A stretch of DNA of 64,000 bases from Clostridia bacterium. GTDB taxonomy: Bacteria; Bacillota; Clostridia; Oscillospirales; Acutalibacteraceae. Position 1 is the stretch's first letter. Each line of letters opens with the position of its first letter. Shown piece by piece: positions 22,004-48,189 of this stretch. The notes beneath the pieces were generated by a model. That model was not told where the DNA came from and searched no databases. It saw nothing but the letters and a program-made list of their open reading frames with translations. The stretch covers positions 33,865 through 97,864 of the forward strand of contig JAFQOT010000006.1 in assembly GCA_017403065.1 (NCBI GenBank), in the 5' to 3' direction. The translations under genes were made by a program, and so were the position numbers.

Positions 22004-22006
22004 TTG

Positions 22007-24529: not shown

Positions 24530-24687
24530 ATTATCAATCCTTTTTAAATTAAATCATAAAAAATCATTCAATAAAAACTTAAACAATTTTTTAACATTCT
24601 AATTTATATTAGTTAGCGTGACAGGGAGACACCCTGCCACGCTATTATAAATACTATGCAATTTTCTTAATAATTTAATTTTGCATT

Positions 24688-26448
24688 TTAGAATTTTTCT
24701 TCTTCGCCATTAGTGGTAAAGAAGGACTTTTCGAAATCGGAACGCTGATAGATTCTCATATAATCTATCTTTGTTTCATAGATATTGTCGATCATATCCT
24801 CGCTCCATCTAACGTTACCGTAGACACTGCTTCCAAGACGGCCGCCGAAAATAGGCTGAAGAATTACTTCTCTTAAAACTTCAGGTCCGCGGTTTTGGAA
24901 TTCACTCTTAATATCATAGGTGTAGAACACATCGCCGTTTGCTGCAAAGGACATAAAATCAGGTGTCCATTCCATGCTGAGAACGTAAAATTCGTCGTCT
25001 AAGAGAGGCTCGCCCTCTTTTACGTTGAATATTCTGTCCTCAGACCACTTTGTACCGTCGATAGAGGTATGACCTCCACTTGCATCAACACTTCCGTCCG
25101 CATTGTAAATGTCCCACCAACGGTGAACGTTAGATCTGAAATAGTCATTATAACCGAAGTTTTCTAATGCATCAATTTCTATACGGGGCTGCCATTTTAA
25201 CTGTTGAACAGTACCAAACCACCAAGACAATGTAGCTGGTGAGTCTGCCTGCTTATAGCGAGCTTCCCATAAACCATATCTAAACTGAACCTTTTTGTTC
25301 TGAGCACTCGGCGCATAGAAGTTTCTGGTAGTTTTATCGCACCAGTAAGGAAGTGTCCATATACCGTCCTTAACGGTGGTATATTTATCGAAATCCTCTC
25401 CGGAATACCAAATGAAGTCCGTACCGAGAACGCTTTGTTTTTCGTTAACCGATTTACCTCTGATAGTCCAACCTTTATAGTCGGCTTTAGAGTTGAAATC
25501 CAGACTCCAGACAAGCTTATAATCGCTGTCAGTAAAGGTTGCCATTTCGGTTACGTTATGGTCCTTAGTGTAAGAGAAGATCTTATCCTCTTTAGCGCTG
25601 TTAACAAAATCGTTATAGAAAACCTTTACTGCGATAGCTAAGGTTGCATCATCCTTAGCGTTGATAACAAGCTTCTTGCCTACAACGCGGATAGTGTAAT
25701 CCTTGCCTGCTAAATCAACCTGACTTTCCTTACGGTTTGTATTGCCAATAAGAATTTCATAATCGGTTTCAGCCTTTAAATCATTTACGAGTTCCATCTT
25801 AACGCCTGTCTGGGCGAAGTAAAAATCGGTCATTTCTTTGCAAGGCTTATAAGCAACCATAGCGCAGTTGAAAGGAGTAACAATACGGAATTTGCTAAGC
25901 TCGACTCCTGCTATGTTGTGCTTTTTTTCGTCGAACTTTTTCTGATAAATAAATTCGTATCCGTTATATAAATTCTCCCAGCTTTTCTCGTCTTTACAGA
26001 AGGTTTCTAAAAACCACTCCAAAGCTTTTTGTGTTACATCGTCACTAAAAGCATAAATAACGATTTTGTAGCCTGTTGCCTTAACAATAAAGTCATTTGC
26101 TGAATTTTTGCGGTTTTCTTTAAGAATTTTTTTAGCATCTGCTGTTTCGGGACGGTTTGTTTCACCTACTAAAAGCTCATAAGTCTGAGCATCGTAATCT
26201 AAAACGTCCTTCGAAAGAGTAGCAGCGCATGAAAGATTTTTACGAACATTTATTCTGAAATCTTTAACTGCATCAGTAAGCTCTGTAGTAGCTTTTTGTG
26301 GGTAAACAATAGCATAAGTAAATTTACCTTTTGTAAGCATTTCAGGGATTTCAACCGATGCGGTGGTAGAACCACCGCAGGCTGTTGCTGTTAAAATCAT
26401 AAGCAAAGCTAAGGTTAATGAAATTAAACGAATTATTTTAGTTTTCAT
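24688..26448 (-). CDS. lipoprotein with two N-terminal alpha/beta repeat domains and a C-terminal GH16-like beta-jelly-roll
   Basis: Lipobox LTATAC; repeated ...YE(L/I)L(V/I)G(E/N)TNR... modules; GH16 catalytic signature EIDALE in PRIEIDALENFG. Confidence 0.75.
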   Translation of the reverse strand: MKTKIIRLISLTLALLMILTATACGGSTTASVEIPEMLTKGKFTYAIVYPQKATTELTDAVKDFRINVRKNLSCAATLSKDVLDYDAQTYELLVGETNRPETADAKKILKENRKNSANDFIVKATGYKIVIYAFSDDVTQKALEWFLETFCKDEKSWENLYNGYEFIYQKKFDEKKHNIAGVELSKFRIVTPFNCAMVAYKPCKEMTDFYFAQTGVKMELVNDLKAETDYEILIGNTNRKESQVDLAGKDYTIRVVGKKLVINAKDDATLAIAVKVFYNDFVNSAKEDKIFSYTKDHNVTEMATFTDSDYKLVWSLDFNSKADYKGWTIRGKSVNEKQSVLGTDFIWYSGEDFDKYTTVKDGIWTLPYWCDKTTRNFYAPSAQNKKVQFRYGLWEARYKQADSPATLSWWFGTVQQLKWQPRIEIDALENFGYNDYFRSNVHRWWDIYNADGSVDASGGHTSIDGTKWSEDRIFNVKEGEPLLDDEFYVLSMEWTPDFMSFAANGDVFYTYDIKSEFQNRGPEVLREVILQPIFGGRLGSSVYGNVRWSEDMIDNIYETKIDYMRIYQRSDFEKSFFTTNGEEEKF

Positions 26449-29400: not shown

Positions 29401-31319
29401 GATTTGAAGTGGAAAGCCTTGTTGGTTGTTCCTGGGAAATCTGCAACCTCGAAGGTTGCGTTATAATCATTAGCACTCTTGGCGTCATTAGCATCGACAG
29501 TTCCGTTTTCAGTGGTATCAAAATCGATGTTGTAATAACCTTCAATCTGACTTGAGGGTGGTCCGCCAGGTGTTGGTGTTAAAGACTGTACGTCCCACTT
29601 ACACTTAACTGCAGCATCACCTGCAGGAGTTTTGGTCATATCGAGAGCTGAGCTTTCAGCATTTAACCAAGCGATAGTTGCAGTCTTTTCAGCGTCAGTA
29701 TATGTCTGGTTGGTTAAAATTTCAGCATAAGTTTTAGTAGTTACGCCGTTTTCACCGCCCTCATATGTGTAATATGGAACCTGAAGCGGATACTCTGTTG
29801 TATCAGGAATAAGAGCGTATTTACCTGCTGTTGTAGCACCGTCTCTTAATCTTTCGATTTTAAGGTTAGCAATGTAAAGGTCAGCGTTTTTACCCTTACT
29901 CAAAGCAAGAGATGCAGTGGTAAAGTCTTTACCAACAACCATAACACCTGTTACGGTAACCCACTTGCCTGTACCATCCTTTAGGATTTTAAAGTAGGTG
30001 TTGCCGCCGTGACCTGTTGTATAAGTTTTATTACCCATACGGGCAGTACCGTTTTCAATAACGTATGCATAAACGTCTTGGTCGCCTGACGCTAAATAAT
30101 ACTCAAAGGTTACTGCATAGTAAGCATTTTTTGCTATGCTTATTTTCTGACCCTCTGTATTATAAAGGTCGAAATAATACGGTGTATTTAAATTTGTTGA
30201 GTTCCAAGCACCGAATTCTTTACCGGATCTGTTAATAGCTGCATGATATGCGGTTCTGCCGTCTTTCTGAATAACTTCGGTAGTAACATTGCCGTTGTTA
30301 TCGTGAAGGGCAGTTGGGTTTGCACCCTGATATGCCGCATTATTAAAATCAACAGGTATTGCATTGGTGTTTATGGGCTTATCCTTCCAAGCGCACTTAA
30401 CTACCCCGTCCTTTACAGGAGATGTAGTCATATCAAGAGCTGCTGTACCCTCAGCGTTTAACCAAGAAATCATCTTCTCAGCGCCATTATCGTTATAGTA
30501 CTGAGTGTCTAATATATCGCTGTATTTAGCGGTTGTTACACCGTCTGCCTCAGCAGCAAATGTATAATATGGTTTGTCTAAAGGATAGGTTGTATTATCA
30601 GGAATAAGAGCGTAGTTACCTGCTGTTGTAGCGCCGTCTCTTAATCTTTCGATTTTAAGGTTAGCAATGTAAAGGTCAGCTCCTTTACCGAAACTCAAAG
30701 CAAGAGATGTTGTGGTAATGTTGCTACCAATAGCCATAACACCTGTTACGGTAACCCACTTGCCTGTACCATCCTTTAGGATTTTAAAGTAGGTGTTGCC
30801 GCCGTGACCTGTTGTGTAGGTCTTATTGCCCATACGAGCAGTGCCGTTTTGCATAATAGTTACATAAACATCTTGGTCGGCTGACGCTAAATAATACTCA
30901 AAGGTTACTGCATAGTAAGCATTTTTTGCTATGCTTATTGCCTGACCCTCTGTATTATAAAGGTCGAAATAATACTTTGAATAGTGCTTTTCGTTTATTT
31001 CGGTTGTTGTTGTATCGTCTGCTGTGGAATAGGTGCCGAAATCTTTACCGGCTTTGTTAATAGCTGCATGATATGCAGTTCTGCCGTCTTTCTGAATAAC
31101 TTCGGTAGTAACATTGCCGTTGTTATCGTGAAGGGCAGTTGGGTTTGCACCGCTATATGCCGCATTGCCGAAATCAACTGTAAAGCTTTGACCGTTTGAA
31201 AGTGTTACGGACTCAGCCGACGCAGCAAAGGGCAAACCTATAACCACAATAGCTATAGCGCAAACTATAGCAACAGTTCTGGCAGAAAGTTTTGATAAAA
31301 TATTTTTGATATTTCTCAT
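26448..31319 (-). CDS. 1623-aa cell-surface protein: signal peptide, six CBM4_9-like beta-sandwich modules, five of them followed by B-repeat-like modules (three clear, two variant), C-terminal TM anchor
   Basis: Module ends YI(A/D)N(L/I)KI(E/R); (F/Y)xG(W/Y)Y...(V/I)YA(R/N/S)W repeats; C-terminal VAVFVIIICAAVILIAGGVVLTVILIKNKKNK; no catalytic motif seen. Confidence 0.85.
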   Translation of the reverse strand: MRNIKNILSKLSARTVAIVCAIAIVVIGLPFAASAESVTLSNGQSFTVDFGNAAYSGANPTALHDNNGNVTTEVIQKDGRTAYHAAINKAGKDFGTYSTADDTTTTEINEKHYSKYYFDLYNTEGQAISIAKNAYYAVTFEYYLASADQDVYVTIMQNGTARMGNKTYTTGHGGNTYFKILKDGTGKWVTVTGVMAIGSNITTTSLALSFGKGADLYIANLKIERLRDGATTAGNYALIPDNTTYPLDKPYYTFAAEADGVTTAKYSDILDTQYYNDNGAEKMISWLNAEGTAALDMTTSPVKDGVVKCAWKDKPINTNAIPVDFNNAAYQGANPTALHDNNGNVTTEVIQKDGRTAYHAAINRSGKEFGAWNSTNLNTPYYFDLYNTEGQKISIAKNAYYAVTFEYYLASGDQDVYAYVIENGTARMGNKTYTTGHGGNTYFKILKDGTGKWVTVTGVMVVGKDFTTASLALSKGKNADLYIANLKIERLRDGATTAGKYALIPDTTEYPLQVPYYTYEGGENGVTTKTYAEILTNQTYTDAEKTATIAWLNAESSALDMTKTPAGDAAVKCKWDVQSLTPTPGGPPSSQIEGYYNIDFDTTENGTVDANDAKSANDYNATFEVADFPGTTNKAFHFKSDTDKHVGSISKITRLMFKDGSGNYIETTPGEKYVISYEYYLKTNATTNSNKLYIGFENRNTSNAFHILQFFPTTASKASQQYIYSAYHAIPYGNTQEGRWITQTDVVTIGTTTSGSNQKYLALVMMGGKNTEGYIDNIKIRKLEDNEQAVVVSTVSGMKLNTPYYIVTKGEDYILPTNVEYYDSASQMTFEGWYTDKDCSADKKVSSFTAVDDNKLVYARWVIAARDKYFIDFEGNGTVDLESSSTANPKKALFEVVDGANGKMLHFKAPDPNKSVADNGKSAASLALVDASGKPVTVKAGQKYVISYDYYIVTNAASGNLYLGLSARAGGEYTLGKYGNIVSTNEKQLGYKAPNDLTVVDKWSVVTDTMTFENARDCITFAFSGGKGSEGYIDNIRIEAVAADEAVVIAKSGYAQTQPYFIVKKNANVTLPKLDGAALGTKKTFYGWYADEDLSQPIGTFKTDKDIFVYANWAFAAGQRLVCGFEDDYTFDFQSGKYTKQLSRVTDYATEGKYSLKFDTNIPNSNGNPGISMYTSIPLMFDGENIIAKKGERYAVSFDYYLITPPTINIERPGITFYTGSIGYTARTIYTTQDLKEEEPILGVNTKNQAVVYQLTQNTPLEKWGTYAGVITTQRNGELALSLAGGANTDFRIDNITITRLDDNQSALTFSSFERMEVPYLIYKTNTTVTIPEIKPCNKEMAFVGYYDSNSMTTKIKKFKLTKDTMIYASWAQRLITQDFENFDEALLNPFQGFDSELYTPKTAGYNKANVHGGNNSFHRIGNGVPYSAMQIMSPKDMMGVGAIYKLTFWVKMDKTTHTKGSIAIASCHSPEYGYSRKGNYTNVINISDLTDNQWHEVTYTFVAQAQYISLRTPGMCSLFFDDFTIEYQGEGAQLSRGVQPLEDYEIEAEVKAYEKYAQAQEQGEEKIVDPNLGSRPASSGSVAGMPVAVFVIIICAAVILIAGGVVLTVILIKNKKNKEAKL
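29595..31181 (-). repeat. intragenic tandem duplication (about 0.8 kb per copy) inside the 1623-aa gene
   Basis: aa ~47-311 and ~322-575 are near-identical. A 74-nt identical DNA run occurs at 30253-30326 and 31078-31151 (offset 825 nt). Confidence 0.9.
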
Positions 31320-31440
31320 ATTTTGTATACCCGCAATACTTGTAAATATTGCAAAATATACTTTCCACCTTCCTTTCTGAAAGATTTGAAAAAGGGATTC
31401 TCCCCAAAATGTGACTAAAAATGCCTATAGCCACCAAATC

Positions 31441-31468
31441 GGATTGTCGGAAATTAACCCGACAACCC
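31441..31468 (-). terminator. intra-operon hairpin (partial terminator or stabiliser) after the 442-aa SBP gene
   Basis: Minus strand GGGTTGTCGG-N8-CCGACAATCC, 10-bp stem including one G-U pair, weak U-tract (GATTTGG). Confidence 0.4.
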
Positions 31469-31485
31469 GTTAAATTTTTTAAGAA

Positions 31486-32814
31486 TTATTTATATTCTTC
31501 TATAGTTTTATCAATAATAGCATTAGCTTCCTGAATGCAGTTATCTAATGTGCCACTTACGGTTGCGATGTTAGTGGTGATCTGGCTTGAAGAGCCCTTA
31601 ACAACAGGGTTCATAAAGACCTGAGGCATTCCGTTTGGATACAATACTCTGTATATAGTACCTTCACACATATAAATAGAAAAATCACCATTCTTAAGCT
31701 GGTCTTTCGCTAATTTAGCAGAAGATTCGTTCAGGTAAACCTCATCCATATCGTAGTTGTTATCATCTAAGAAGTAACGAATGAAGTAACCTGCTGCGAG
31801 TGGGTTTTTAGAGCCTTCGCAAAGACCGTATGTGCGTGAAGCAATATAAGTGCCAGGATAATTTTCATCAGAAGCATTTCTCTTAGGTAATTTTGTATAT
31901 GCTACAGTTGCTGGGTCAACGTTTTTATAATATCCATTCTTTCTTAAAGCAAACGCAGAGGTTAAACACATTACGCCTGTACCATCAGGGATGCCACTTG
32001 TAGTCATACCTGATGGTGTATAAGCAAGATTGCTTTCGCTTATTTCAAGTATGTACTTATAGCAGTCAAACAAGTTTGTGTTGGTAGAAATGTTTTCATA
32101 TTTACCTGTTTCGGTATTGAAATTGATCCACTGAGCGCCATAAGCATTTAAGAATTGTTGGACGTCGAGAGAGGTGTTGTTATTATCACCGTCAGCAGGA
32201 GCGTTTCTAATATCCTTCATACACTGCTTGAAGGTTTCCCAAGTCCAGTTGTTTTCTTTTATGTACTCATCAGGTGTTTTAATTCCGTAAGTTTCAAAAA
32301 ATTCAACGTTATAGGTAATAATAGAGGCAGCTAATCTATTGTATGAATTAGCACCGTTTACTGCGTAGGTCTTGCCACCAAAGGTGTAGTATGGTATTGC
32401 ATTTTGATCCCAGAATTTATCCTTGGGGTCTATTCCTGCATTTTCAATAGGTTGAAGAACCTGTAAAAGTGTGGCAATAGTACCGTTTTCAACTATAACA
32501 TCAGGAGCATCGTCAGCTGCTATCTGAGCCTGTAGCTTAGCAACGTACTGAGCTTCTGGATAAATTTCCATTTCAACGTCAATACCTGTTAAGTCAATAA
32601 AGCCCTCGATAACGCTTGCGCACTCATCTGCTGTATGGTCACGCCAAGAAGCAAATCTAACGGTTGAGCCAACTAAATCAACAGGAATATTGTCAAAATA
32701 CGCTGTATCAACGTTTGCTTGCTTGCCGCCCTTGTCTTTGTCGTCACCACAACCGGTGAAACAACAAGCGATCATGCAAACCGCCATAAGAATTGCTGAA
32801 ATTCTCTTAATCAT
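31486..32814 (-). CDS. CUT1-family sugar ABC transporter substrate-binding lipoprotein
   Basis: Lipobox CFTGC. ORF reaches 32829 (GTG), but the ATG at 32814 follows GGAGG by 8 nt. SBP family-1 architecture. Confidence 0.85.
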   Translation of the reverse strand: MIKRISAILMAVCMIACCFTGCGDDKDKGGKQANVDTAYFDNIPVDLVGSTVRFASWRDHTADECASVIEGFIDLTGIDVEMEIYPEAQYVAKLQAQIAADDAPDVIVENGTIATLLQVLQPIENAGIDPKDKFWDQNAIPYYTFGGKTYAVNGANSYNRLAASIITYNVEFFETYGIKTPDEYIKENNWTWETFKQCMKDIRNAPADGDNNNTSLDVQQFLNAYGAQWINFNTETGKYENISTNTNLFDCYKYILEISESNLAYTPSGMTTSGIPDGTGVMCLTSAFALRKNGYYKNVDPATVAYTKLPKRNASDENYPGTYIASRTYGLCEGSKNPLAAGYFIRYFLDDNNYDMDEVYLNESSAKLAKDQLKNGDFSIYMCEGTIYRVLYPNGMPQVFMNPVVKGSSSQITTNIATVSGTLDNCIQEANAIIDKTIEEYK

Positions 32815-32840
32815 AGGTTTTTCCTCCACTTTAATATTTT

Positions 32841-33347
32841 TTATTTATTAGCCGAAAAATCCCAAACTATTTTGTAATCATCGGCATATAGGGTTTCAAT
32901 CGAGTTTTTGGGGAATATAGCCAGGTCTAATCTGCCTTCGCCTTCGTCTCTCATACCTGTATTAAGGTCGTGAAATACGCTATAACGTCCCTCATTATTC
33001 TCGTGATCGTTTTTGAAATTATAATACATAGCGTAAACCATAGAGTCTGTTTTCTCTACATAGCCTACAACGTATTTTGCAAAATCATCAGTAGAATTGA
33101 TAACATAGTCATCTTCCTTGCGGCAAACAACTACATATTCTACATTTTCTTTTAATTCTAACTTCTTTTCTTCTGAAGAAGTTGCCTCAGAACTGTCTGT
33201 AGCAGTACCGTCCGAAGAATCTGTTACATCTGAAGAAGCCACAGTATCCTTCGAAGGTGTTTTTTCACCTGCATCGGTTTTGCCTTCGCCGCATGCAACT
33301 AAAGATGCTGCCATTAAAACTGCAAGAAATAAAGCTAATTTTTTCAC
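32841..33347 (-). CDS. small lipoprotein of unknown function (S/T/D-rich linker plus ~100-aa domain)
   Basis: Lipobox LVAC. The GTG at 33347 is preceded by AAAGGAG (the ORF track extends to 33389). Confidence 0.6.
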   Translation of the reverse strand: MKKLALFLAVLMAASLVACGEGKTDAGEKTPSKDTVASSDVTDSSDGTATDSSEATSSEEKKLELKENVEYVVVCRKEDDYVINSTDDFAKYVVGYVEKTDSMVYAMYYNFKNDHENNEGRYSVFHDLNTGMRDEGEGRLDLAIFPKNSIETLYADDYKIVWDFSANK

Positions 33348-33416
33348 ATTTATACTCCTTTCTTGAAAATTCGTTTGTGCAAAAGTCATAAAAAGACCTC
33401 ACATCGCACTATAATT

Positions 33417-34400
33417 TTATCCTGTAATGCCTACTTTGTCAATACTTTGTACGAATTTTTTTTGTACAATCATATACATAATTAAAACAGGTAAAATAAA
33501 GATTAAGCAAGCCGCCATAACTATCATCGCTTTTTCTGTTATGGCATGTTTTCTGAATAAAACACTAATAGATTCTTCTATAGTGTTCAGTTTAACTGCC
33601 ATTGGGTAATTCGATGATGTATACATAACGGCGAGATAATAATCGTTCCAGTGCCAGATTACAGAGAATACAGAAACTGTGAAGAGTATAACGCCTGAGG
33701 ATGGTATTGCAATACTTAGGAATGTTCTGAAAGGACCTGCGCCGTCGATCCACGCAGCTTCTTCAAGCTCTTTCGGAAGTCCCTTAAAGAACTGTATATA
33801 CATAAATATTATGATACCTGCGCGTAAGCCTACACCAAAAAGACTTGGTAAATAGAAAGGCCATACAGAATTTAACAAATTGATTTTTATAGGCTCACCT
33901 ATAATATTTTCAATAAGTCCCACTATTCCTAAAATATCAAAATCTGAGAAATTGATGGTCATAGGAATAATAATCATTTGTGAAGGGATGAATATAAGCA
34001 GCATAAGGAATACATTTAAAATACCCTTAAGCTTAAAGTCGAAACGTGCCATACCGTAAGCCGCCAATGTGCAAGAGAAAATTTCAATAACAGCGGCTAC
34101 TATTTCGTATACTAATGTGCTTATAAACGAATTAGAAAAATCTAACGCCTCGAAAGCCTGAGTAAAGCCTTCTAATGAAAACACCTTAGGAATCCACACA
34201 ATGCTTGGGTCTAAGAATGCGTCAGGTGTTTTTAAAGCTGTTGTTATCATAAATACCATAGGGTAAATAATAACGTAGCTTATTGAAATAAGCAGAACAT
34301 ATCGGTAAAGCGATACCAAAAATGAGCCTGCCTTTTGCATCATTTTTTTCTGGTAAAGAGCCTTACTCTCAGGGGTAGAAAACTGTTTCATTTTTAACAT
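33417..34400 (-). CDS. carbohydrate ABC transporter permease (MalG-like)
   Basis: 6 TM, EAA-type loop LEEAAWIDGAGPFRTFLSIAIP. Confidence 0.9.
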   Translation of the reverse strand: MLKMKQFSTPESKALYQKKMMQKAGSFLVSLYRYVLLISISYVIIYPMVFMITTALKTPDAFLDPSIVWIPKVFSLEGFTQAFEALDFSNSFISTLVYEIVAAVIEIFSCTLAAYGMARFDFKLKGILNVFLMLLIFIPSQMIIIPMTINFSDFDILGIVGLIENIIGEPIKINLLNSVWPFYLPSLFGVGLRAGIIIFMYIQFFKGLPKELEEAAWIDGAGPFRTFLSIAIPSSGVILFTVSVFSVIWHWNDYYLAVMYTSSNYPMAVKLNTIEESISVLFRKHAITEKAMIVMAACLIFILPVLIMYMIVQKKFVQSIDKVGITG

Positions 34401-34416
34401 AAAATCTACCTCCTTT

Positions 34417-37562: not shown

Positions 37563-37572
37563 GTTTTACCTC

Positions 37573-39696
37573 CTAACGAAATGCTACTTCTAAGAATATG
37601 GTGCCAACAAATGTGAAAATCTGCTGAACCATTATTATTGTTACTGCAATAAGGAATACAACGAGAAGTAATCCAAATATAGAAAGAATTGAAGTTCCAA
37701 CGAATTTACCGAATGTGTAATCGTGAATTTTCATCAAACCTATTGCCAAAAGCAACACTGTATATATAACAGCAACTGTGCCGATAATAGAAAGGAATGA
37801 TGCTTCGCTTTCTAACAGGAAGTTGGACAACACTGTTGTAACCACATTGGAAATTATTAAAACTATTAACGAGTAACAGGTAACAATGTAAATTTCTTTA
37901 ATTTTACCTAAACCGTTAAATAATGTACATACAGCCCAGTTAACAACTGTCCATATAAGTACCGCACCCAAGGAGCGAATTAAAACTACTATAGAGTTAA
38001 AGGCTGTAGCATCAGTTGAAGAAAATGTAAATCCGTAAAAATCGTTTTTGAGAATTTCAGAAATATAATAAACTACCAAAATTATTGTAGCGTAAATTAC
38101 AGAGCCTTTTTTCTTCTCTCTGATTTCGCCAAAATTGTTTGCAGGGTGAATAGGTACAGTAAGAGCAAGTCTTAAATCGTAATTTTTAATAAATACAATA
38201 CCCTTTTTCTTCTTGTAAACCAGTCCTGCCCAAAGCGCTGCCACCAACAAAACGCAGCCTACAAATATAAATCCGAAGTTTTTGCTTAACAGGTCACTTC
38301 TTAATTGCTCGTAAGCTCTTCCGTAGGTATCTCTGTCTAAGCCCTTCTTTGAATATTCAATAGCGGCTTCATAGTCAGCTCTGTTAAATGCAGCTCTTCC
38401 CAAGCCGATATACGCAAGCTGGCAGTTTTTATCCTGTGCGAGAATATTTTCCCAAAGGTCCTCTGCCTTATCATAATCACCGTCGTTAGAATACTGCTGA
38501 GCAGTTCTTAAAAGCTGACCGTATTCGGTAAACTTGAAAATGGTAACGCTTTGCTTTAACTGGTCGCAGACATAAAGCCTGTCGTTATAATAATCAATGC
38601 CGCAAGGCTTTTTAAATGTTCCCGCCTGAGTGCCGTTACCAACACCTCCACCGAAAGCAGAAACGAAATTGCAGCTGTTGTCATACATATATATATTGCC
38701 TAAGGAACTGTCGTAGCAATACAAGAAGCCTTGGTTATCTACGCATACACTTGAAATGTCAGGTTTAACGGTTCTTCCTAAAGAGTTATGGGTGATTTGA
38801 TCCTCGCCGAAAGGCTTTTCGCCTTTTAGTATATTTGTACCTATTGGGCTTAAGCGGCGAATAGCATTCACTCTGTTGTTGTTATTAGTAGAGCCGGTTG
38901 CAGTATAAACGAAGCCTTCGTTATCTACATATATATCTACCAACTGATACGGCAAGCTTTTTACACTATAGTCATACTTTTCGCTTGTCATTGTTAAGTT
39001 TTCCCACAAATTAGCAAGAGCTGACAAGAAGGAAGCTTCCGCTTCGTTAGCGCCGTAGAAGCCTATAAACTTACCGTCGGGATTATATAAAATCGCACCG
39101 TAATAGCAACCGTCACTTAAAACATAGGTATAACCGCTTTGGTCAACCGTTACTCGTATGGGACGGAAGGTAAAATCATCAGGCATAAGTGATGAATCCG
39201 GAACGGTGATAATATCACTTACGTTACCCTGCGTATCCGACACGATAATTCTTGCATTGTCGGTATCGCATATATACATTACGTTTTCGGGAGAAACAAA
39301 TATTCCTCTCGGTTTTTTAAGCTTTAACACTTCACCGTTATTGTTAAAAGAAGTAATCTGATGAGAAAGCTTATATTCTGAACTAATTACTGTTACCTTT
39401 GCCTCGGTTGTATCTACTAAATAAATAGAACCGTCAGGACCCACGCTCATATCAGCTATCTCGGTAAAGCCTGTAAGACCAAGTGTTCCCGCATCAACAA
39501 CTGTATCTACGCTGAATGCTGCTTTAGTGGGCACAGGCTTGTTTACATAAGAATCTTGCCAATATGTATACGAGTTATAGGCCGTATCTGATTCGTATCC
39601 CGCAGCAGATACAACCAATGTAGCAGACAAAATAAATGTAATCAGAGCAAAGATAAAACATCTTGTAAATAAGTTTTTAACTGAATGTTTTTTCAT
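37573..39696 (-). CDS. fusion membrane protein: signal peptide, six-bladed NHL-repeat propeller, TPR segment, Yip1-like 5-TM domain
   Basis: Six NHL-like blades (DGSIYLVDT, VMYICDTDNARIIV, GYTYVLSDG, GFVYTATGS, GFLYCYDSSLGNIYMYD, RLYVCDQLKQSVTIF), a TPR-like helix pair, then TM helices. Confidence 0.8.
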   Translation of the reverse strand: MKKHSVKNLFTRCFIFALITFILSATLVVSAAGYESDTAYNSYTYWQDSYVNKPVPTKAAFSVDTVVDAGTLGLTGFTEIADMSVGPDGSIYLVDTTEAKVTVISSEYKLSHQITSFNNNGEVLKLKKPRGIFVSPENVMYICDTDNARIIVSDTQGNVSDIITVPDSSLMPDDFTFRPIRVTVDQSGYTYVLSDGCYYGAILYNPDGKFIGFYGANEAEASFLSALANLWENLTMTSEKYDYSVKSLPYQLVDIYVDNEGFVYTATGSTNNNNRVNAIRRLSPIGTNILKGEKPFGEDQITHNSLGRTVKPDISSVCVDNQGFLYCYDSSLGNIYMYDNSCNFVSAFGGGVGNGTQAGTFKKPCGIDYYNDRLYVCDQLKQSVTIFKFTEYGQLLRTAQQYSNDGDYDKAEDLWENILAQDKNCQLAYIGLGRAAFNRADYEAAIEYSKKGLDRDTYGRAYEQLRSDLLSKNFGFIFVGCVLLVAALWAGLVYKKKKGIVFIKNYDLRLALTVPIHPANNFGEIREKKKGSVIYATIILVVYYISEILKNDFYGFTFSSTDATAFNSIVVLIRSLGAVLIWTVVNWAVCTLFNGLGKIKEIYIVTCYSLIVLIISNVVTTVLSNFLLESEASFLSIIGTVAVIYTVLLLAIGLMKIHDYTFGKFVGTSILSIFGLLLVVFLIAVTIIMVQQIFTFVGTIFLEVAFR

Positions 39697-39713
39697 TTAA
39701 TTTTCGCCTCCTA

Positions 39714-40619
39714 CTATTCCTTGATACCGGCGCTGCTCATAGATTCCATAATGTTGCTCTGGGAAATCATATAAACTAAGATAGGCGGTATCATCATAAT
39801 TACCGTAACCGCCATGGCGCTACCTGAACGGGCGATACCGCCGGCAGTAATTTGTTGCATGATGGTAGGTAATGTTTTTAAGCTTTCATTAAATATTGTA
39901 CCTTGTGGTGTAATAGCCCACGCTTCGCGGAATCCAAAAAGAATAAGGGTAAGAAGACAAGGCTTAACTATAGGCACAGCTATCTGGAAGAAAATTCTGT
40001 ACGCTCCTGCTCCGTCAACCCTTGCAGCTTCAAGAAGCGCGTTTGGTATAGCACCCTCCATATACTGCTTCATAAGGAATACACCCATTGTAGAAGCAAC
40101 GTGAGGAATAATCATAACCAAATATGTATCAATAAGACCAAACCAAGAATAAATCAAGTATCTTGGAATTGACAGTGTGTACGCATTAAACAAAAGCGCG
40201 AACTGTACTATAAGGAAGAAGGTCTTTCTACCTTTTATTTTTGACTTGCATAGAGCAAAAGCAGCCAATGTTGCCAAAAATACATATAAAAGAGTAGAGG
40301 TTATTGTAACAAACAAGCTGTTAAATACATATCTGGAAAGAGGTATTCTCAGGTTTGATAAAAGTCCCGGTAAAGCGGCGTAGTTAGCTACTGTAGGACG
40401 TATTACAAAGAAACGCGGCGGGAATACCAAAAGCTCATCCAAAGGCTTAAAAGATGTAACAATACAGTAAACCAAAGGAAGTACCGAAAAGGCGCCAAAT
40501 GCAACTAAAAACAAAACATAAAAGAAGTTGCCCACTTTTGATCTTGTATAGCGTTTATATTGACTTTCTTTTGACACCTTTAATTTGGGAGTCTTTGTCT
40601 TAACATTATTTTTTGTCAT
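39714..40619 (-). CDS. carbohydrate ABC transporter permease (MalG-like)
   Basis: EAA loop LLEAARVDGAGAYRIFFQIAVP; 6 TM. Confidence 0.9.
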   Translation of the reverse strand: MTKNNVKTKTPKLKVSKESQYKRYTRSKVGNFFYVLFLVAFGAFSVLPLVYCIVTSFKPLDELLVFPPRFFVIRPTVANYAALPGLLSNLRIPLSRYVFNSLFVTITSTLLYVFLATLAAFALCKSKIKGRKTFFLIVQFALLFNAYTLSIPRYLIYSWFGLIDTYLVMIIPHVASTMGVFLMKQYMEGAIPNALLEAARVDGAGAYRIFFQIAVPIVKPCLLTLILFGFREAWAITPQGTIFNESLKTLPTIMQQITAGGIARSGSAMAVTVIMMIPPILVYMISQSNIMESMSSAGIKE

Positions 40620-40632
40620 TATTAAATCCTCC

Positions 40633-41535
40633 CTATCTTCCTACAGAATCAATGGCCTTTTTGATTACAGCACGTGTTACGGCCATCATTACGAACAATA
40701 CAACTGCCAATGCAGATGCATATCCCATTTCATACTTAACAGTACCAACGTCATGCATATAAGAAACGATGGTATCAACTGCATAGTTAACGCTGGGGTA
40801 GCCTGCAAGCTCAATAGCGATAGCGCTAACCGAGAAGGCAGAGGCTATCTGCATAACAGCGCTGAACAACAGCATGTGCTGCATAGCAGGCAATGTAATG
40901 TACCAAAGCTCTTGCCAGCGGTTTCTGATACCGTCAATAGCGCCCGCCTCATACATTTCACCATTTACGTTCTGCAAACCTGAAATGTTAGAAAGGAAAG
41001 ATACACCCATACTCTGCCACAACTGGACAGCTATAATAATCGGCATAACATAGGTAGCATTTTTAAGCCAGGAAATCGGCTCGGTTAAGATGCCTATAGA
41101 CATTAAAAGGCTGTTTACATAACCGTAGCTATCTGACGAGAAGGCTGTCTGCCATACGAAGTAGGCGTTACCTACAAGGGCAGGACAATAGAAAAGGAAT
41201 GATAAAATAGTACGCACCATTGGACTGAATTCGTTAATAAACCAAGCTAAAACGAAGGCAAGCAAAAAGCCTAAAGGTCCTGTGATAATTGCGAATACTA
41301 CTGTATTTTTAACAGTAATAGAAAATATTTCATCATTTAATATCATACGGGCGTAGTTATCCACACCGTTAAATTTAGGGGCGGAAACCATATCAAAATC
41401 CGTAAAACTAAAAATTATGGAGGTGATAACAGGTAATACCGTTAATATAACGAATACTATAAAAAACGGTAACACCATTGTGTAATACGGAATCCATTCC
41501 TGAAGAATGTTCCGTGTTTTTGTAGTCATTTTCAT
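40633..41535 (-). CDS. sugar ABC transporter permease (MalF-like)
   Basis: EAA loop YEAGAIDGIRNRWQELWYITLP; 6 TM. Confidence 0.9.
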   Translation of the reverse strand: MKMTTKTRNILQEWIPYYTMVLPFFIVFVILTVLPVITSIIFSFTDFDMVSAPKFNGVDNYARMILNDEIFSITVKNTVVFAIITGPLGFLLAFVLAWFINEFSPMVRTILSFLFYCPALVGNAYFVWQTAFSSDSYGYVNSLLMSIGILTEPISWLKNATYVMPIIIAVQLWQSMGVSFLSNISGLQNVNGEMYEAGAIDGIRNRWQELWYITLPAMQHMLLFSAVMQIASAFSVSAIAIELAGYPSVNYAVDTIVSYMHDVGTVKYEMGYASALAVVLFVMMAVTRAVIKKAIDSVGR

Positions 41536-41552
41536 TAAATCTTCTCCTCCAT

Positions 41553-44441
41553 TTAATCAGCGTACTGTGCTATCTTACGTTGGATTTCGCTGTCGGCAAT
41601 CTTATCCCATTTGGTTAATGTATCCTTAGGGTTAGCGTCGTTATTATAAACATCCCAGAATGCCTGGTCAACAGATCTTGAGAGGTAATAGCTTCCCGGA
41701 ACCTCAGGAACCTCCTTAATCCAGGTTCTTTGCTCAAGAAGTGTAGCAAGATGCTCTTTATCCCAAGACATACGGCTGAAGGCTTCAACGTTAGCGGTTG
41801 TAACACGCGAAATAGCGCCTAAAATTGATTCTATATTGTTATTATATCTCAACTGTATGTCAGCGCTGGTCCACCACTTAAGGAATTCCCAAGCAGCTTC
41901 CTTGTTTTCGGAATGTTTAAGAATTCCACAGCCTGTACCCGAGCCTGAAACGGTATGATTAACCTTTCCGTTTTCATCCTTAACACCGGGCACCAATGCG
42001 ATAGACCATTTTCCATCAATTTCAGGGGCAGCGTCCGAAATAGTAGTATATATATTGTAGGGCTCTATACCCAAAGGTGTTGTACCTGCTCTGAATCGGT
42101 TATAGAAGCTTTGTACTGTTGGAATACGGTATTTTGTATACAAATCGGTCCAGAAGGTAAACGCCTTGAAGCTTGTTGGGCTTGTAAGCATAGCCTGAGT
42201 TTGTTTTTCATCATACAGGCTACCGCCGTGCTGCTGTAAAATACCGGCAAAGAGGTTAAGTCCGCCCACACCTGTATTTACAGTAGTTGCCGCGCTTATT
42301 TGTGTATAAGGTAAGCCTACCTGTAAATTATTGTGCTGAAGTGATGTTGTAACATCGATAAAATCTTCCCAGGTTTCAGGAACCTTTAATCCAAAGTCGG
42401 CTAAAATATCCTCACGGTAATACATTATATAGAATGCTTGTGTATCAGGAAGCGCATAAGCGCCGTTTTTATACTGATAAGGCATACCTGCAGAATCGCC
42501 AAAGCGCTTCATAATTTCTTCATAGTCATCAAAGTTCTTAAGGTCATATAATGCGCCGCGCATTGCAAGGTTTACAGGCTCGGTTCTCGCCATATGTAAC
42601 GAAAGGTCAGGGGCAATACCTGCCAGCATACCGTTAATAATGCTTGCATTTGTAAGCTCAAGATTAACGTTAATTCCTGTTTGAGGAGTAAAGGACTCCT
42701 GAATCAAGGAGTTCAATACCGTAGCCTGATCACGACCCCAGTTTACCCAGATTTTAATGGTTTCGCCTTCACCGGAAACGTGGGAGATACGGCTGTATTC
42801 ATCTCCGAAAGAAACAAGCAAACGCTTTGTTCCAAATGCAAGACCTTCAAAAAAGCCTGCTTCTCTGCTATCAAATTCCACATCTGCGCCTGTAAGCTGA
42901 ATGCAGTCAAGAGATAAAGGCATTGACTTCATTTCGCTTAACCAAGTACCTAATGTGGTATACTTTGTGAAATAATCCGCAACATAAATATGCGCTTTAT
43001 ATGAATCTTCGCACATAGAATTCAAAATACGAGACATATCGTTAATAGCAGCTATGTACTGACTGCTTCGTTTTCCCGACAAAGCCTTCATACCAGCGGC
43101 AAGGTCGTTGAGAGTGTCTCTGTATGATTCCAAATTTTCAACAAAATTAGGAATTTGCTTATGTAAATCATAGTCGCGGTTTTTATCAGGAGATGAGCCT
43201 GTAATTGTTACTATATCTAAGTAAAAATTACCTATTTTTTCTACCATACCCTCAAGTATGTCATAGGCGAAATCGGTTTCACCCATAGTACCTGCTAAGG
43301 ATATTGTATGCTTGCCCTCGTCCAGATAAATGAGGCAGTCCTCTTCACCGTTATCCAAAACAGTAAACGCCCAGTCAGTATTGTATTCAAACTTTACATT
43401 TTTAGCTTCTTCAAAAGGAGTTTTACCGTCAACTTTTAACCAACGGTAAGAAATACCGTCAATAATCTGGTCCTGCTTGTAATTAAAGCCTATTCTGTAA
43501 AGACCAGCTTTTTCTACGTTGAATTCCCATTGGATTTCTTCCCGTGGAGTTTTCCAGTTTGAAGCGCCAATGTAGTTCATAACAGACTTAGAAACTTCAC
43601 GCGGGCGGATATTAGCAGAAGAGTTGTCGCATTTAGGAACTAAGGATTTAACAGATTTCTTTATGGCATCCTCAGCCTCAATGGTAATAACCTTTCCGTC
43701 ATAATTCTTATAACCCGCAGCCTTATAATCCTTTTTAACATCAGAGTATGACTTAATTTCCTTAGGAGCAACAAGAGATATTTCAGCAATCGCAATATAA
43801 CCTTGGTCTTTTTCTATAGTAATAGTATGCTGACCTGCTGTGAAAGCAAACTGTAAATCCTCAGAAATGCCGCCTGCAGGGTCATACAAAACGGTTGTAT
43901 TGTATTCTCTTACCTGTACCTGCTCAGGAGCATATTCATTTCCTACATCATCCTTGTTTTTACCGTCAGCATCTTTCCACATACAAGTAAAATCAAGCTT
44001 TTCGGCAACAGGGAAAGGACTTACTCCATCTATTTTAAGAGAGAAATCGACATTAGCACCCGATTCATCAATTACGAAATATGTAACCTGAATTTCATAT
44101 AATCCCGCATTGGCAACCATAACAGGAATATTGATGGCATCCTTATCAGATAACCAGACTAAAGCGTTTTTACCCGCATAATCCTCGTATTTAACCGAAG
44201 GGTTTCCTTTTGCTACGGTAAAGGCCGAGAGGTCAAACTTAACATCCTCTTTAGCGGCGCTTAAACCACTTGCCGATTTATACAAATCATAGTCTGACTG
44301 TATAACCAACACATTTGAATCTGTTTCTTTTGCTTCTTCGGCGCTAACGTTGAAAGCAGCACCTACAGGAAGGAAAACCATTCCCACAAGCATAAAAAGC
44401 ATTAAAAGAAACGAAGTGCTTTGTTTAAATAATTTTGTCAT
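41553..44441 (-). CDS. 962-aa extracellular solute-binding protein with two N-terminal CBM6/35-like modules
   Basis: Signal peptide ...FNVSAEE; two beta-sandwich-like modules (AGLYEIQVTY..., IEAEDA...AGLYRIGFNY...GKHTISL); the C-terminal ~420 aa look SBP family-1-like. Confidence 0.8.
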   Translation of the reverse strand: MTKLFKQSTSFLLMLFMLVGMVFLPVGAAFNVSAEEAKETDSNVLVIQSDYDLYKSASGLSAAKEDVKFDLSAFTVAKGNPSVKYEDYAGKNALVWLSDKDAINIPVMVANAGLYEIQVTYFVIDESGANVDFSLKIDGVSPFPVAEKLDFTCMWKDADGKNKDDVGNEYAPEQVQVREYNTTVLYDPAGGISEDLQFAFTAGQHTITIEKDQGYIAIAEISLVAPKEIKSYSDVKKDYKAAGYKNYDGKVITIEAEDAIKKSVKSLVPKCDNSSANIRPREVSKSVMNYIGASNWKTPREEIQWEFNVEKAGLYRIGFNYKQDQIIDGISYRWLKVDGKTPFEEAKNVKFEYNTDWAFTVLDNGEEDCLIYLDEGKHTISLAGTMGETDFAYDILEGMVEKIGNFYLDIVTITGSSPDKNRDYDLHKQIPNFVENLESYRDTLNDLAAGMKALSGKRSSQYIAAINDMSRILNSMCEDSYKAHIYVADYFTKYTTLGTWLSEMKSMPLSLDCIQLTGADVEFDSREAGFFEGLAFGTKRLLVSFGDEYSRISHVSGEGETIKIWVNWGRDQATVLNSLIQESFTPQTGINVNLELTNASIINGMLAGIAPDLSLHMARTEPVNLAMRGALYDLKNFDDYEEIMKRFGDSAGMPYQYKNGAYALPDTQAFYIMYYREDILADFGLKVPETWEDFIDVTTSLQHNNLQVGLPYTQISAATTVNTGVGGLNLFAGILQQHGGSLYDEKQTQAMLTSPTSFKAFTFWTDLYTKYRIPTVQSFYNRFRAGTTPLGIEPYNIYTTISDAAPEIDGKWSIALVPGVKDENGKVNHTVSGSGTGCGILKHSENKEAAWEFLKWWTSADIQLRYNNNIESILGAISRVTTANVEAFSRMSWDKEHLATLLEQRTWIKEVPEVPGSYYLSRSVDQAFWDVYNNDANPKDTLTKWDKIADSEIQRKIAQYAD

Positions 44442-48112: not shown

Positions 48113-48189
48113 TGGCACGCTGAAAGGGATTCGAACCCCCGACCCTCTGCTTAGAAGGCAGATGCTCTATCCAACTGAGCTATCAGCGC
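48113..48189 (-). tRNA. tRNA-Arg (anticodon UCU), CCA encoded
   Basis: Hand-folded cloverleaf: acceptor GCGCTGA/TCAGCGT, D-arm GCTC-AGTTGGATA-GAGC, anticodon loop CT-TCT-AA, T-arm GGGGG-TTCGAAT-CCCTT, discriminator G, CCA. Confidence 0.9.

Follow-up and report, generated by a model that had tools for sequence, protein, structure and literature searches.

A probable Gram-positive polysaccharide utilisation locus with a conserved seven-gene transport and processing core in uncultured gut Clostridia

We analysed an eleven-gene locus in a 64-kb stretch of DNA, hereafter the window, from an uncultured gut Clostridia MAG (NCBI locus tags IJD55_). The locus is, in our judgement, probably a Gram-positive PUL (gpPUL) that is built on a conserved seven-gene core for transport and processing, and for which a mechanism can be proposed. 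A gpPUL combines at least one enzyme that degrades polysaccharides, a system for carbohydrate transport and a regulator of transcription (Sheridan et al. 2016, PMC5320581). In the window, we found a GH16-family domain and a protein with a predicted GH129-like fold, two SBPs with four permeases, and a gene of the AraC family. A sequence-only reading had already likened the locus to a Gram-positive analogue of a PUL, and this view is supported by the GH16-like enzyme, the ABC components and the divergent AraC gene being in place.

Layout of the locus and conservation of its core

The locus spans positions 24688-44441 on the minus strand (Table 1). The sequence-only reading had described eleven co-directional, tightly joined genes, and this layout was reproduced in full, including the limits of every ORF and the shared strand. 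In operon order, the junctions calculated from the coordinates measure 17, 13, 17, 10, -4, 16, 27, 11, 166 and -1 nt. The hairpin that had been noted in the 166-nt gap was also recovered, with an MFE of -20.1 kcal/mol (z = -4.54) that none of 200 shuffled sequences equalled. It received no call in the terminator scan and is likely a partial terminator or an mRNA-stabilising element. A second hairpin closes the eleven-gene unit.

At the other end, the intergenic region that separates the locus from the divergent AraC-family gene is presumed to hold the promoter and operator. Read directly, it shows a Shine-Dalgarno-like AGAGGAAAG ahead of the SBP start codon, and promoter-like hexamers lie at 44702-44675 (-) and 44744-44772 (+), such sites being no more numerous across the region scanned than in shuffled sequences. 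Promoter and terminator scans gave counts not above shuffles, and an Rfam search of the locus returned no RNA element. The AraC-family protein matches Pfam HTH_18 (5.7e-21) and AraC_binding (2e-8), 27 of the 80 related loci have a homologue adjoining the cassette, and we infer that this gene regulates the eleven-gene locus.

Table 1. Positions in the window of the genes and RNA elements discussed in the text
Feature	Position	Strand	Description
Giant SBP	41553-44441	-	962 aa; type-I signal peptide without lipobox; C-terminal CUT1-type SBP domain
Permease A1	40633-41535	-	MalF-like; EAA loop EAGAIDG...ITLP; BPD_transp_1 2.9e-8
Permease A2	39714-40619	-	MalG-like; EAA loop EAARVDGAG; BPD_transp_1 2.7e-5
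NHL-TPR-Yip1 membrane protein	37573-39696	-	707 aa; Yip1 (PF04893) 1.1e-15; NHL and TPR matches
DUF5696 lipoprotein	35310-37562	-	750 aa; Pfam DUF5696 3.1e-138; lipobox FTAC
Permease B1	34417-35313	-	BPD_transp_1 5.4e-6; start codon overlaps DUF5696 stop by 4 nt
Permease B2	33417-34400	-	EAA loop EAAWIDGAG; BPD_transp_1 1.4e-12
Small lipoprotein	32841-33389	-	182 aa; lipobox LVAC; Ser/Thr/Asp-rich linker; C-terminal domain of ~100 aa
Second SBP	31486-32829	-	Lipoprotein of ordinary size; 447 aa from GTG, 442 aa from the ATG taken in the sequence-only reading; SBP_bac_1 1.4e-9
RNA hairpin	31440-31469	-	12 bp; within the 166-nt gap, 3' of second SBP gene; then only GAUUUGG
Anchored surface protein	26448-31319	-	1623 aa; signal peptide; C-terminal transmembrane anchor 1590-1608
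GH16-like lipoprotein	24688-26448	-	586 aa; two NAGLU_N-like alpha/beta domains, divergent C-terminal GH16 domain with EIDALE
Closing hairpin	24614-24644	-	13 bp, without U tract; MFE -25.1 kcal/mol, z = -6.64
Divergent intergenic region	44442-44816		375 nt; AT-rich
AraC-family regulator	44817-45620	+	267 aa; cupin sensor domain and HTH_18; divergent, upstream of the locus
Esterase	23507-24529	-	Cytoplasmic alpha/beta-hydrolase; Pfam AXE1, Abhydrolase_7; without signal peptide
UxaB-like oxidoreductase	22007-23470	-	Pfam Mannitol_dh
UxaA altronate dehydratase	20522-22003	-	Pfam GD_AH_C 3.5e-101
UxaC uronate isomerase	19112-20509	-	Pfam UxaC 7e-211

Downstream of the eleven genes, the co-directional run continues to position 19112 with an esterase gene and uxaB-uxaA-uxaC, homologues of which were found within 10 kb in none of the 80 related loci. 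The association of these genes with the locus is specific to the window and lies outside the conserved system. We dropped uxaCAB and the esterase as a general clue to galacturonate or pectin because they are absent from all 80 loci and a strong hairpin lies in between; they may still be relevant to the window organism. This organism also carries a GH28 gene at 58414-59685, and a polysaccharide-biosynthesis gene lies at 17116-18975.

The core consists of the giant SBP, permeases A1 and A2, the NHL-TPR-Yip1 protein, the DUF5696 lipoprotein and permeases B1 and B2. In 68 of the 80 related loci all seven genes are present and their order is unchanged, and the other 12 show contiguous runs of the core that are cut by contig ends, with no exceptions. 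As the DUF5696 proteins of these loci are only 34-46% identical to the window copy, co-linearity in 80 of 80 loci places the arrangement far beyond chance. The gene order was the same for loci retrieved via Yip1 homologues and for those retrieved via a cluster member, and median junctions inside the core are 11-15 nt. The neighbourhood that the sequence-only reading had taken to be recurrent but functionally uncharacterised is thus real and larger than it had claimed, the conserved unit being seven genes long and including the second permease pair.

All 80 related loci come from uncultured gut Clostridia, the system is present in gut organisms of many hosts, and stool contigs of the Human Microbiome Project yielded one copy of the cassette. 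Two to three copies of the core are present in at least 9 of the assemblies that contribute to the 80 loci. A genome scan found 315 relatives of the window DUF5696 protein in GTDB species-representative genomes, and in public data the family amounts to 5,796 representatives of 50%-identity clusters. The core is usually accompanied by GH16 enzymes, anchored proteins of several modules and exo-glycosidases that vary: GH16 genes occur in 35 of the 80 loci, and other co-directional flank genes encode GH2 (7), GH36 (6), GH63-like (5), GH3 (4) and GH78 (3) enzymes.

Transport, processing and surface proteins

The features of a type I (CUT1) importer, namely SBP_bac_1/8 proteins and paired transmembrane subunits with an EAA loop, are present in the locus. 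In the giant SBP, two CBM35-like beta-sandwich modules are followed by a conserved helical mid-domain without any match and then by the SBP domain (Pfam SBP_bac_8 2.1e-21, residues 583-865; SBP_bac_1 5e-19), for which the best matches among solved structures are Lin1841 (5ysb, 3.9e-14) and further sugar SBPs. The modules are termed CBM35-like on sub-threshold or transitive matches: below-threshold matches were found in the window protein (CBM_35) and among 24 homologues, of which 12 match CBM_35 (best 8.9e-9) and 14 match Golvesin_C, and the best PDB match of the N-terminal profile was the CBM35 structure 2vzp, with an E-value of 0.018. A lipobox occurs in just 1 of the 24 homologues, and we class the giant SBP by its sequence as a protein other than a lipoprotein. 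For the second SBP, the closest solved relative is an arabino-oligosaccharide-binding protein (6rjy, E 4.2e-6), and a homologous SBP lies 3' of permease B2 in 43 of the 70 related loci that could be assessed. Substrate hints from the two SBPs were set aside, the matches being too weak (Lin1841 3.9e-14, AbnE 4e-6).

All four permeases carry the EAA-x3-G...P coupling-loop motif, as read from the translations. Permease A1 has about six hydrophobic segments, and permease A2 scores 24.4 bits with BPD_transp_1, slightly below the 26.4-bit cut-off. Between the two pairs, B1 and A1 share 24% identity, as do B2 and A2. In agreement with the sequence-only reading, the eleven-gene locus encodes no ABC ATPase; the sole ABC ATPase in the window is an unrelated, exporter-type protein of 232 aa that is GntR-linked (46499-47197). 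This state is general among related loci, with an ABC ATPase within 10 kb in just 2 of 80 and none in the other 78. The sharing of an ATPase is established for sugar importers of Firmicutes, by MsmK in streptococci and MsmX in B. subtilis (PMC4519317, PMC5730181, PMC7658222). CUT1 operons served by MsmK or MsmX likewise encode an SBP and two permeases without an ATPase gene of their own, but each of them has a single permease pair and, as its SBP, an ordinary lipoprotein of ~420 aa, whereas the window locus has two pairs.

The AlphaFold model of the DUF5696 lipoprotein (pLDDT 90.7, pTM 0.90) comprises an N-terminal beta-sandwich, a (beta/alpha)8 barrel and a C-terminal beta-sandwich. In Foldseek searches, this model matched the GH129 structures 5opq (E 3.4e-34) and 5wzr (E 5e-28), followed by GH101 (~1e-19), with alignments that span the whole length, target-normalised TM-scores of 0.69-0.73 and 10-14% identity; GH36 and GH31 came next. 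GH129, GH101, GH36 and GH31 are all families of retaining alpha-glycosidases, and we counted this for reading DUF5696 as a putative surface alpha-glycosidase with a GH129/GH101-like fold. At the sequence level, the family profile matched 5opq (ZgGH129) in three co-linear stretches (E 7e-5), the HMMER alignment covering the N- and C-terminal domains only; a single-sequence PDB search with the window protein gave no match, and a paralogue in related locus L083 has a weak precomputed Glyco_hydro_101 match. Pfam gives DUF5696 alone, with no sequence-level membership of GH129 or GH101, and we classify the protein as a relative of these families and not a member. It shares the three-domain architecture and the barrel fold with the GH129 enzymes NagBb, an alpha-N-acetylgalactosaminidase (5wzn/5wzr), and ZgGH129, a 3,6-anhydro-D-galactosidase (5opq/8rzk), and with GH101 endo-alpha-GalNAc-ases; it differs from GH129 and GH101 in forming a separate Pfam family, in being a lipoprotein and in being embedded in a transporter operon. 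A literature search for DUF5696 or PF18952 found no papers.

Across 260 family members, 203 of which have a lipobox, the most conserved acidic residues E175, D230, D462 and D546 are near-invariant, and all four are kept in the window copy. Position 582 is Asn in 256 of the 260 and Phe in the window copy. We looked for a conserved Glu or Asp ~30-40 residues past D546, which we take to be where GH101 and GH129 carry their acid/base, and found none in the family. FxPSGSGA, the motif with the strongest conservation, belongs to the N-terminal domain and is outside the barrel. As a sign of a dead enzyme in the window, E642Q was dropped, given that the column is Glu in only 213 of 260 sequences and that residue 642 appears, from predicted secondary structure, to sit at the non-catalytic end of the barrel. 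The junction between DUF5696 and permease B1 has a median of -4 nt across 79 related loci. A plain beta-glucan substrate would leave an alpha-glycosidase without an obvious role, and it is odd that a glycosidase should be invariant in this core when the enzymes in its flanks vary.

The NHL-TPR-Yip1 protein is encoded in every related cassette. It begins with an N-terminal helix, followed by a six-bladed NHL beta-propeller (residues 43-389), predicted to be extracellular, and by TPR helices (391-452); a transmembrane helix (475-493) then leads to the five-helix Yip1 domain in the membrane (~515-706). The Yip1 match covers residues 515-682 at 58.4 bits, against a cut-off of 28.6 bits, and the AlphaFold model (pLDDT 84.1) has five long helices between 533 and 706. 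With Foldseek, the propeller matched generic NHL propellers only (TRIM71, TRIM2, Brat; target-normalised TM-score 0.75-0.83), and we accordingly dropped the idea that it is a lectin or a lyase.

Among the proteins outside the core, the 586-aa lipoprotein taken alone has no Pfam GH16 match, and its best PDB match is 3i4i, at an E-value of 0.011. The profile of its family, however, matches GH16 laminarinase-type structures (6xof 4e-45, 6t2n 5e-40), and E424, D426 and E429 of the ExDxxE motif (E424-I-D426-A-L-E429) are invariant in a 20-sequence alignment. From these matches the protein, which the sequence-only reading had called GH16-like, probably belongs to a divergent GH16 family, the domain of the window copy being very divergent. 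The sole close homologue scanned (L051:18882-20528) likewise has no Pfam match, and the proteins in related loci that exceed the Pfam GH16 threshold are a different group of flank proteins from this family.

The 1623-aa protein contains five homologous units of ~265 aa, each a putative beta-sandwich with a Flg_new-like repeat, at residues 42-311, 317-590 (76% identical to the first unit), 596-868, 869-1135 and 1136-1395, and then a sixth, CBM_4_9-like module. Flg_new scores 26 bits in the protein itself and reaches 1e-29 in its homologues in loci L023 and L031, where CBM_4_9 scores 31 and 28 bits (cut-off 25.9) in regions that align to window residues 1331-1621. We call the protein CBM-like through these homologues only. 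No homologue was retrieved with unit 3 as the query, a PDB sequence search gave no match, and the gene has no tandem repeat at the DNA level. Lastly, the 182-aa lipoprotein has weak Pfam and NCBIfam lipoprotein matches only, and a homologue in just two of the 80 related loci (L001 and L004). The sequence-only reading had recognised only one glycosidase signature in the locus, which does not hold in light of the GH129/GH101-like fold predicted for the 750-aa protein, and it had called several surface proteins unassignable; two of these can now be assigned, by the DUF5696 fold and by the divergent GH16 family of the 586-aa protein.

Proposed mechanism and alternative explanations

We propose that the C-terminally anchored 1623-aa protein, with its repeated CBM-like modules, would hold the polymer at the cell surface, where the GH16-like lipoprotein would cut a beta-linked backbone into oligosaccharides. 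A backbone of the beta-1,3(4)-glucan or beta-galactan type is suggested by the GH16 partners of related loci. Long oligosaccharides would be captured by the CBM35-like modules and SBP domain of the giant SBP, which would dock on permease pair A. The DUF5696 lipoprotein, translationally coupled to permease B1, would trim or debranch glycans at the membrane surface, and smaller products, bound by the 447-aa SBP, would enter via permease pair B. Energy for both transporters would come from a shared MsmK/MsmX-type ATPase whose gene lies elsewhere in the genome. The NHL-TPR-Yip1 protein would serve as a membrane scaffold that holds extracellular components beside the permeases, possibly including the lipid-less giant SBP, and the divergent AraC regulator would switch the unit on.

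It is also conceivable, if unlikely, that the seven core proteins form an undescribed ABC import machine, that is, one complex which couples surface glycan cleavage to uptake and is a functional counterpart of SusC/SusD. In such a machine DUF5696 would be the binder of a second triad and would pass what it has bound or cleaved straight to permease pair B, and the Yip1 protein would bridge the two pairs. The gene order can indeed be read as two triads, SBP-A1-A2 and DUF5696-B1-B2; the 4-nt overlap of DUF5696 and B1 equals the median of 79 loci; DUF5696, the Yip1 protein and the permeases are equally invariant, while the flank enzymes vary; and the giant SBP, having no lipid anchor, needs a partner to remain at the surface. 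Moreover, permease pair B is constant, yet the second SBP is missing in 27 of the 70 assessable loci, which indicates that the two pairs may not be independent importers. Against a single machine, the window and the 43 other loci do have a second SBP, and the missing ones could be divergent or encoded elsewhere; nor do we know of a type I importer that is served by a glycoside-hydrolase-fold protein in place of an SBP.

The invariance of DUF5696 within a core whose partner enzymes vary would equally suit a non-catalytic, glycan-binding lipoprotein that has retained a glycosidase fold, akin to SusE/F-type accessory proteins of Bacteroidota PULs. We hold this to be quite unlikely. The lack of a conserved acid/base candidate at the place presumed for GH101 and GH129, the Phe of the window copy at the near-invariant Asn582 and the location of the top conserved motif, FxPSGSGA, in the N-terminal domain and not in the barrel all agree with it, but E175, D230, D462 and D546 are near-invariant over 260 diverse sequences, a pattern typical of an active site, and the strong fold matches to active enzymes extend over the whole length. 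It seems very improbable that the locus recycles or remodels wall or capsule glycans of the cell itself and not dietary or host glycans. Cell-wall recycling systems also combine surface-anchored hydrolases with importers, and the polysaccharide-biosynthesis gene at 17116-18975 would fit such a role; the 2-3 paralogous copies per genome with differing exo-glycosidase partners, the CBM-like capture modules and AraC sugar-type regulator in the locus, and the presence of the system in gut organisms of many hosts argue against it.

Comparison with known systems and significance

The gpPUL reading that we favour has close parallels. The nearest studied case is Blautia producta, in which a cell-anchored GH16 enzyme and an ABC importer use mixed-linkage glucan (PMC10318527). 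The gpPULs of B. producta (PMC10318527) and of Roseburia and Eubacterium rectale (PMC5320581) resemble the window locus in having a multi-modular endo-glycanase anchored at the surface (GH16 in B. producta), SBPs that are lipoproteins, permease pairs of the CUT1 type and a linked regulator, and in these systems oligosaccharides are imported and then digested by exo-enzymes. The window locus differs from them in its two permease pairs per unit, its 962-aa non-lipoprotein SBP fused to CBM35-like modules, its invariant NHL-TPR-Yip1 membrane protein and invariant GH129-like lipoprotein, and in the conservation of its core as one block, with multiplication of this block within genomes. We found none of these distinguishing features described in the literature on gpPULs, and a 2026 review of glycoside transporters contains neither the word Yip1 nor any DUF name (PMC13543919).

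For the Yip1 protein, a likeness exists in Bacillus, where the Yip1-family membrane protein YknW is encoded and works with ABC components as an accessory of the YknXYZ transporter (PMC4887032); YknXYZ, however, effects SDP toxin efflux, whereas the window locus contains genes of a type I importer. Our literature search found no paper that pairs a Yip1 protein with a sugar ABC importer. YknW presumably lacks the NHL propeller and TPR ectodomain. With the Sus-like PULs of Bacteroidota, the locus shares a genomic logic, namely an invariant transport core in several paralogous copies with variable CAZymes, surface binders and regulator. Its components, in contrast, have no Sus homology; there is no outer membrane, TonB-dependent transporter or SusD, and transport would run through ABC permeases across a single membrane. 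Scans of 21 proteins from the locus and its surroundings gave no match to SusC-like or SusD-like Pfam families.

Acutalibacteraceae, Oscillospiraceae and Ruminococcaceae are abundant and mostly uncultured gut lineages, whose glycan harvest is, to our knowledge, barely known. Our analysis defines a conserved, multi-copy transport core for these lineages, usable as a marker for their polysaccharide utilisation loci in the way that SusC/SusD pairs are used in Bacteroidota. DUF5696 receives an assignment that can be put to the test, as a GH129/GH101-like glycosidase, and what the Yip1-propeller protein and the second permease pair do could reveal a new coupling between surface processing and ABC import.

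A recurrent seven-gene core

The eleven ORFs of the locus are real and all lie on the minus strand, and the protein list drawn up in the sequence-only reading was upheld by Pfam. Seven of the genes, here called the core, encode in order a giant SBP of 962 aa (an SBP_bac_1/8 domain makes up its C-terminal third), permeases A1 and A2, a 707-aa protein with Yip1 (1e-15), NHL and TPR matches, a 750-aa protein, and permeases B1 and B2. An EAA loop is legible in the translations of all four BPD_transp_1 permeases. The remaining products include a 182-aa lipoprotein, a second SBP, a 1623-aa protein and a 586-aa lipoprotein; the second SBP is 442 aa long from the ATG chosen earlier and 447 aa if a GTG start is used. 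In operon order the gene junctions measure 17, 13, 17, 10, -4, 16, 27, 11, 166 and -1 nt, and the hairpin reported in the 166-nt gap was recovered (12 bp, -20.1 kcal/mol, z -4.5). As had been claimed, the locus encodes no ABC ATPase, the sole one in the window being part of a GntR-linked exporter-type trio.

The earlier reader had described part of this arrangement, namely the giant SBP, two permeases, the Yip1-type protein and the large lipoprotein, as a recurrent neighbourhood. Scanning GTDB species-representative genomes with DUF5696-derived patterns (the 750-aa protein belongs to this family, see below) gave 315 relatives of the window protein, and the loci of the best 80 were compared. 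Indeed, the core is co-linear throughout: 68 of the 80 carry all seven genes in the same order and on the same strand, and the other 12 are contiguous sub-runs broken at contig ends, with no exceptions, at a DUF5696 identity to the window copy of only 34–46%. All 80 loci come from uncultured Clostridia MAGs, mostly labelled Acutalibacteraceae, Oscillospiraceae or Ruminococcaceae, with Hadza humans, ruminants, rabbits and chickens as hosts. The same cassette was reached from homologues of the Yip1 protein as an independent starting point, and again in a locus that a cluster member led to, on stool contigs of the Human Microbiome Project. A candidate for a culturable host is the organism that encodes WP_178722276.1, on a contig of 3.5 Mb. 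Median junctions within the core are 11–15 nt (-4 nt from DUF5696 to B1), and at least 9 assemblies hold two or three copies.

The partners of the core are more variable. Of the 70 loci that could be assessed, 43 have a second SBP after B2; GH16-domain genes occur in 35/80, mostly directly adjoining the core, and other co-directional flanking genes encode GH2, GH36, GH63-like, GH3 and GH78 proteins. An ABC ATPase of any kind lies within 10 kb in only two of the 80. A type I dockerin (2.8e-10) is present in one GH16 protein encoded beside a related cassette, suggesting that the partner enzyme of some species is attached to a cellulosome-like scaffold. Separately, a 1251-aa TIR_2/NB-ARC protein, probably a defence gene product, directly adjoins another related cassette.

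Features of the locus, its surroundings and related loci
Feature	Sequence	Position	Strand	Remarks
Locus, eleven ORFs	window	24688-44441	-	
Giant SBP gene	window	41553-44441		
DUF5696 Phe582 codon	window	35819-35821		
1623-aa protein, units 1 and 2	window	29550-31196	-	residues 42-590
AraC-family regulator gene	window	44817-45620		divergent, upstream of locus
GntR regulator, 232-aa ABC ATPase, 263-aa membrane protein	window	45714-47559	-	small exporter-type trio
tRNA gene	window	48116-48189		
T-box gene run	window	48250-55459	-	
T-box leader	window	55231-55459		Rfam RF00230, 109 bits
GH28 gene and own divergent AraC regulator	window	57665-59685		423 aa, polygalacturonase or rhamnogalacturonase type; 14 kb from locus
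GH16 protein with dockerin	L002 (related locus)	844-3132		
TIR_2/NB-ARC protein	L081 (related locus)	18390-22145	-	
569-aa DUF5696 paralogue	L083, L084 (human stool contigs)	1-483 in each		

Assignment of the surface proteins

Two proteins that the sequence-only reading had left unassignable can now be placed. The 750-aa protein, annotated as a hypothetical protein in the NCBI MAG (“Clostridia bacterium”, locus tags IJD55_), matches Pfam DUF5696 at 3e-138, a family that counts 5,796 cluster representatives when clustered at 50% identity (E <= 1e-3). An AlphaFold model built with a 56-sequence alignment is confident (pLDDT 90.7, pTM 0.90) and shows a (beta/alpha)8 barrel flanked on its N- and C-terminal sides by beta-sandwich domains. 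Its top Foldseek matches in the PDB are GH129 enzymes (ZgGH129, 5opq, E 3.4e-34; NagBb, 5wzr, E 5e-28), with target-normalised TM-scores of 0.69–0.73, followed by GH101, GH36 and GH31, all retaining alpha-glycosidase families. The family profile also matches ZgGH129 at the sequence level (E 7e-5, three co-linear stretches), and a DUF5696 paralogue adjoining a related cassette has a weak precomputed GH101 match. Because of this fold and profile evidence, DUF5696 is distantly related to both GH129 and GH101 and belongs to neither family; judging from the model, the window protein is a putative glycosidase with a GH129/GH101-like fold. E175, D230, D462 and D546 are near-invariant among 260 diverse relatives and are all retained in the window copy. 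The catalytic pairs of the GH129 enzymes are D435/E478 in NagBb (5WZN) and D486/E517 in ZgGH129 (8RZK). At position 582, which comes after barrel strand 5 on the face predicted to hold the active site, the window copy has Phe, against Asn in 256 of the 260 family members; the Phe recurs in just two further sequences of the alignment, one of them (P0001) 99% identical. The paralogue with the weak GH101 match is 569 aa long and also matches DUF6259 weakly in Pfam (the GH101 model is Glyco_hydro_101); its gene closely precedes a pair of GH16 genes and a complete cassette, and DUF5696-type proteins are therefore also found outside the core position.

The 586-aa lipoprotein by itself bears hardly any resemblance to GH16 in Pfam and PDB sequence searches. 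It contains the motif EIDALE, and E424, D426 and E429 are invariant in an alignment with 19 homologues from related loci; the family profile matches GH16 structures of laminarinase and O-glycanase type at 4e-45 to 5e-40. Profile and motif together would place this protein with GH16.

The giant SBP has two CBM35-like modules. The CBM_35 match in the N-terminal part of the window protein is below the Pfam threshold, as are those that half of the 24 homologues show, the strongest at 9e-9. In the PDB, this part matches the CBM35 2vzp best. A conserved helical mid-domain of ~150 aa (residues ~400–545) had no Pfam or PDB match. Members of the family have type-I signal peptides, and 23 of 24 lack a lipobox, which is unusual among Gram-positive SBPs (alignment A3 of the giant SBPs). 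The Yip1 protein, modelled at pLDDT 84, begins with a helix, which is followed by an NHL propeller of six blades, TPR helices, a single transmembrane helix and a Yip1 domain of five helices; a fold search returned generic NHL propellers and nothing more specific. Lastly, in the 1623-aa protein five homologous units of ~265 aa are followed by a sixth module, and a transmembrane anchor lies at the C-terminus. Units 1 and 2 (~270 aa each) are 76% identical as against 25–43% for the remaining units, indicating a recent internal duplication. Taken alone, the window protein has only a weak Flg_new match in Pfam; homologues carry CBM_4_9 and strong Flg_new matches in the aligning regions, and by way of these its modules are putatively CBM-like.

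Surroundings of the locus in the window

Downstream of the locus, beyond a 13-bp hairpin (-25.1 kcal/mol), the same strand carries a cytoplasmic esterase gene and then uxaB, uxaA and uxaC, a run whose gene content points to galacturonate catabolism. Together with the GH28 gene, uxaCAB suggests that this organism may use pectic uronates. Because esterase, uxaB, uxaA and uxaC were found near none of the 80 related loci, we take their link to the locus to be genome-specific or coincidental. On the other side, the GntR trio, whose membrane protein had no Pfam match, sits between the AraC gene of the locus and the tRNA gene. The T-box leader heads an unusual gene run encoding an HMGL-like/LeuA_dimer protein, an 831-aa protein in which a xylose-isomerase-like TIM barrel (AP_endonuc_2) is fused to an AMP-binding enzyme, an amidohydrolase, a Cys/Met PLP enzyme and a homoserine O-succinyltransferase.

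A possible import route and related systems

We observed a defined parts list with fold assignments, a tight operon structure and a conserved core with variable partners, and these could be combined as follows. The anchored multi-module 1623-aa protein would capture the polymer and the GH16 lipoprotein would endo-cleave it; the CBM-fused giant SBP would bind long oligosaccharides for import through pair A, while the DUF5696 lipoprotein would do the trimming and smaller products would enter via pair B and the 447-aa SBP. Energy would come from a shared MsmK/MsmX-type ATPase, for which there are precedents (PMC4519317, PMC5730181, PMC7658222), the Yip1 protein may serve as a membrane scaffold, with YknW as a precedent (PMC4887032), and the AraC regulator would control the locus.

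The core might instead work as one coupled machine in which DUF5696 takes the place of a binding protein. Two triads can be read in the gene order, the DUF5696 gene overlaps that of permease B1, and the second SBP is frequently absent, all of which speak for such a machine; we regard it as a live, though improbable, alternative to the route above.

A search of the accessible literature library found DUF5696 or PF18952 in no paper, and no description of a doubled permease pair, a lipid-less giant SBP, a Yip1-propeller protein or the GH129-like lipoprotein; a 2026 review of glycoside transporters (PMC13543919) mentions neither Yip1 nor any DUF name. The closest studied system is the GH16/ABC beta-glucan locus of Blautia producta (PMC10318527). 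The locus falls within the definition of a Gram-positive polysaccharide utilisation locus (PMC5320581), in agreement with its earlier interpretation as a Gram-positive analogue of such loci. Although it has zero homology to the SusC/SusD loci, it resembles them in its logic, in which the transport core is invariant and present in several copies while the enzymes around it vary.
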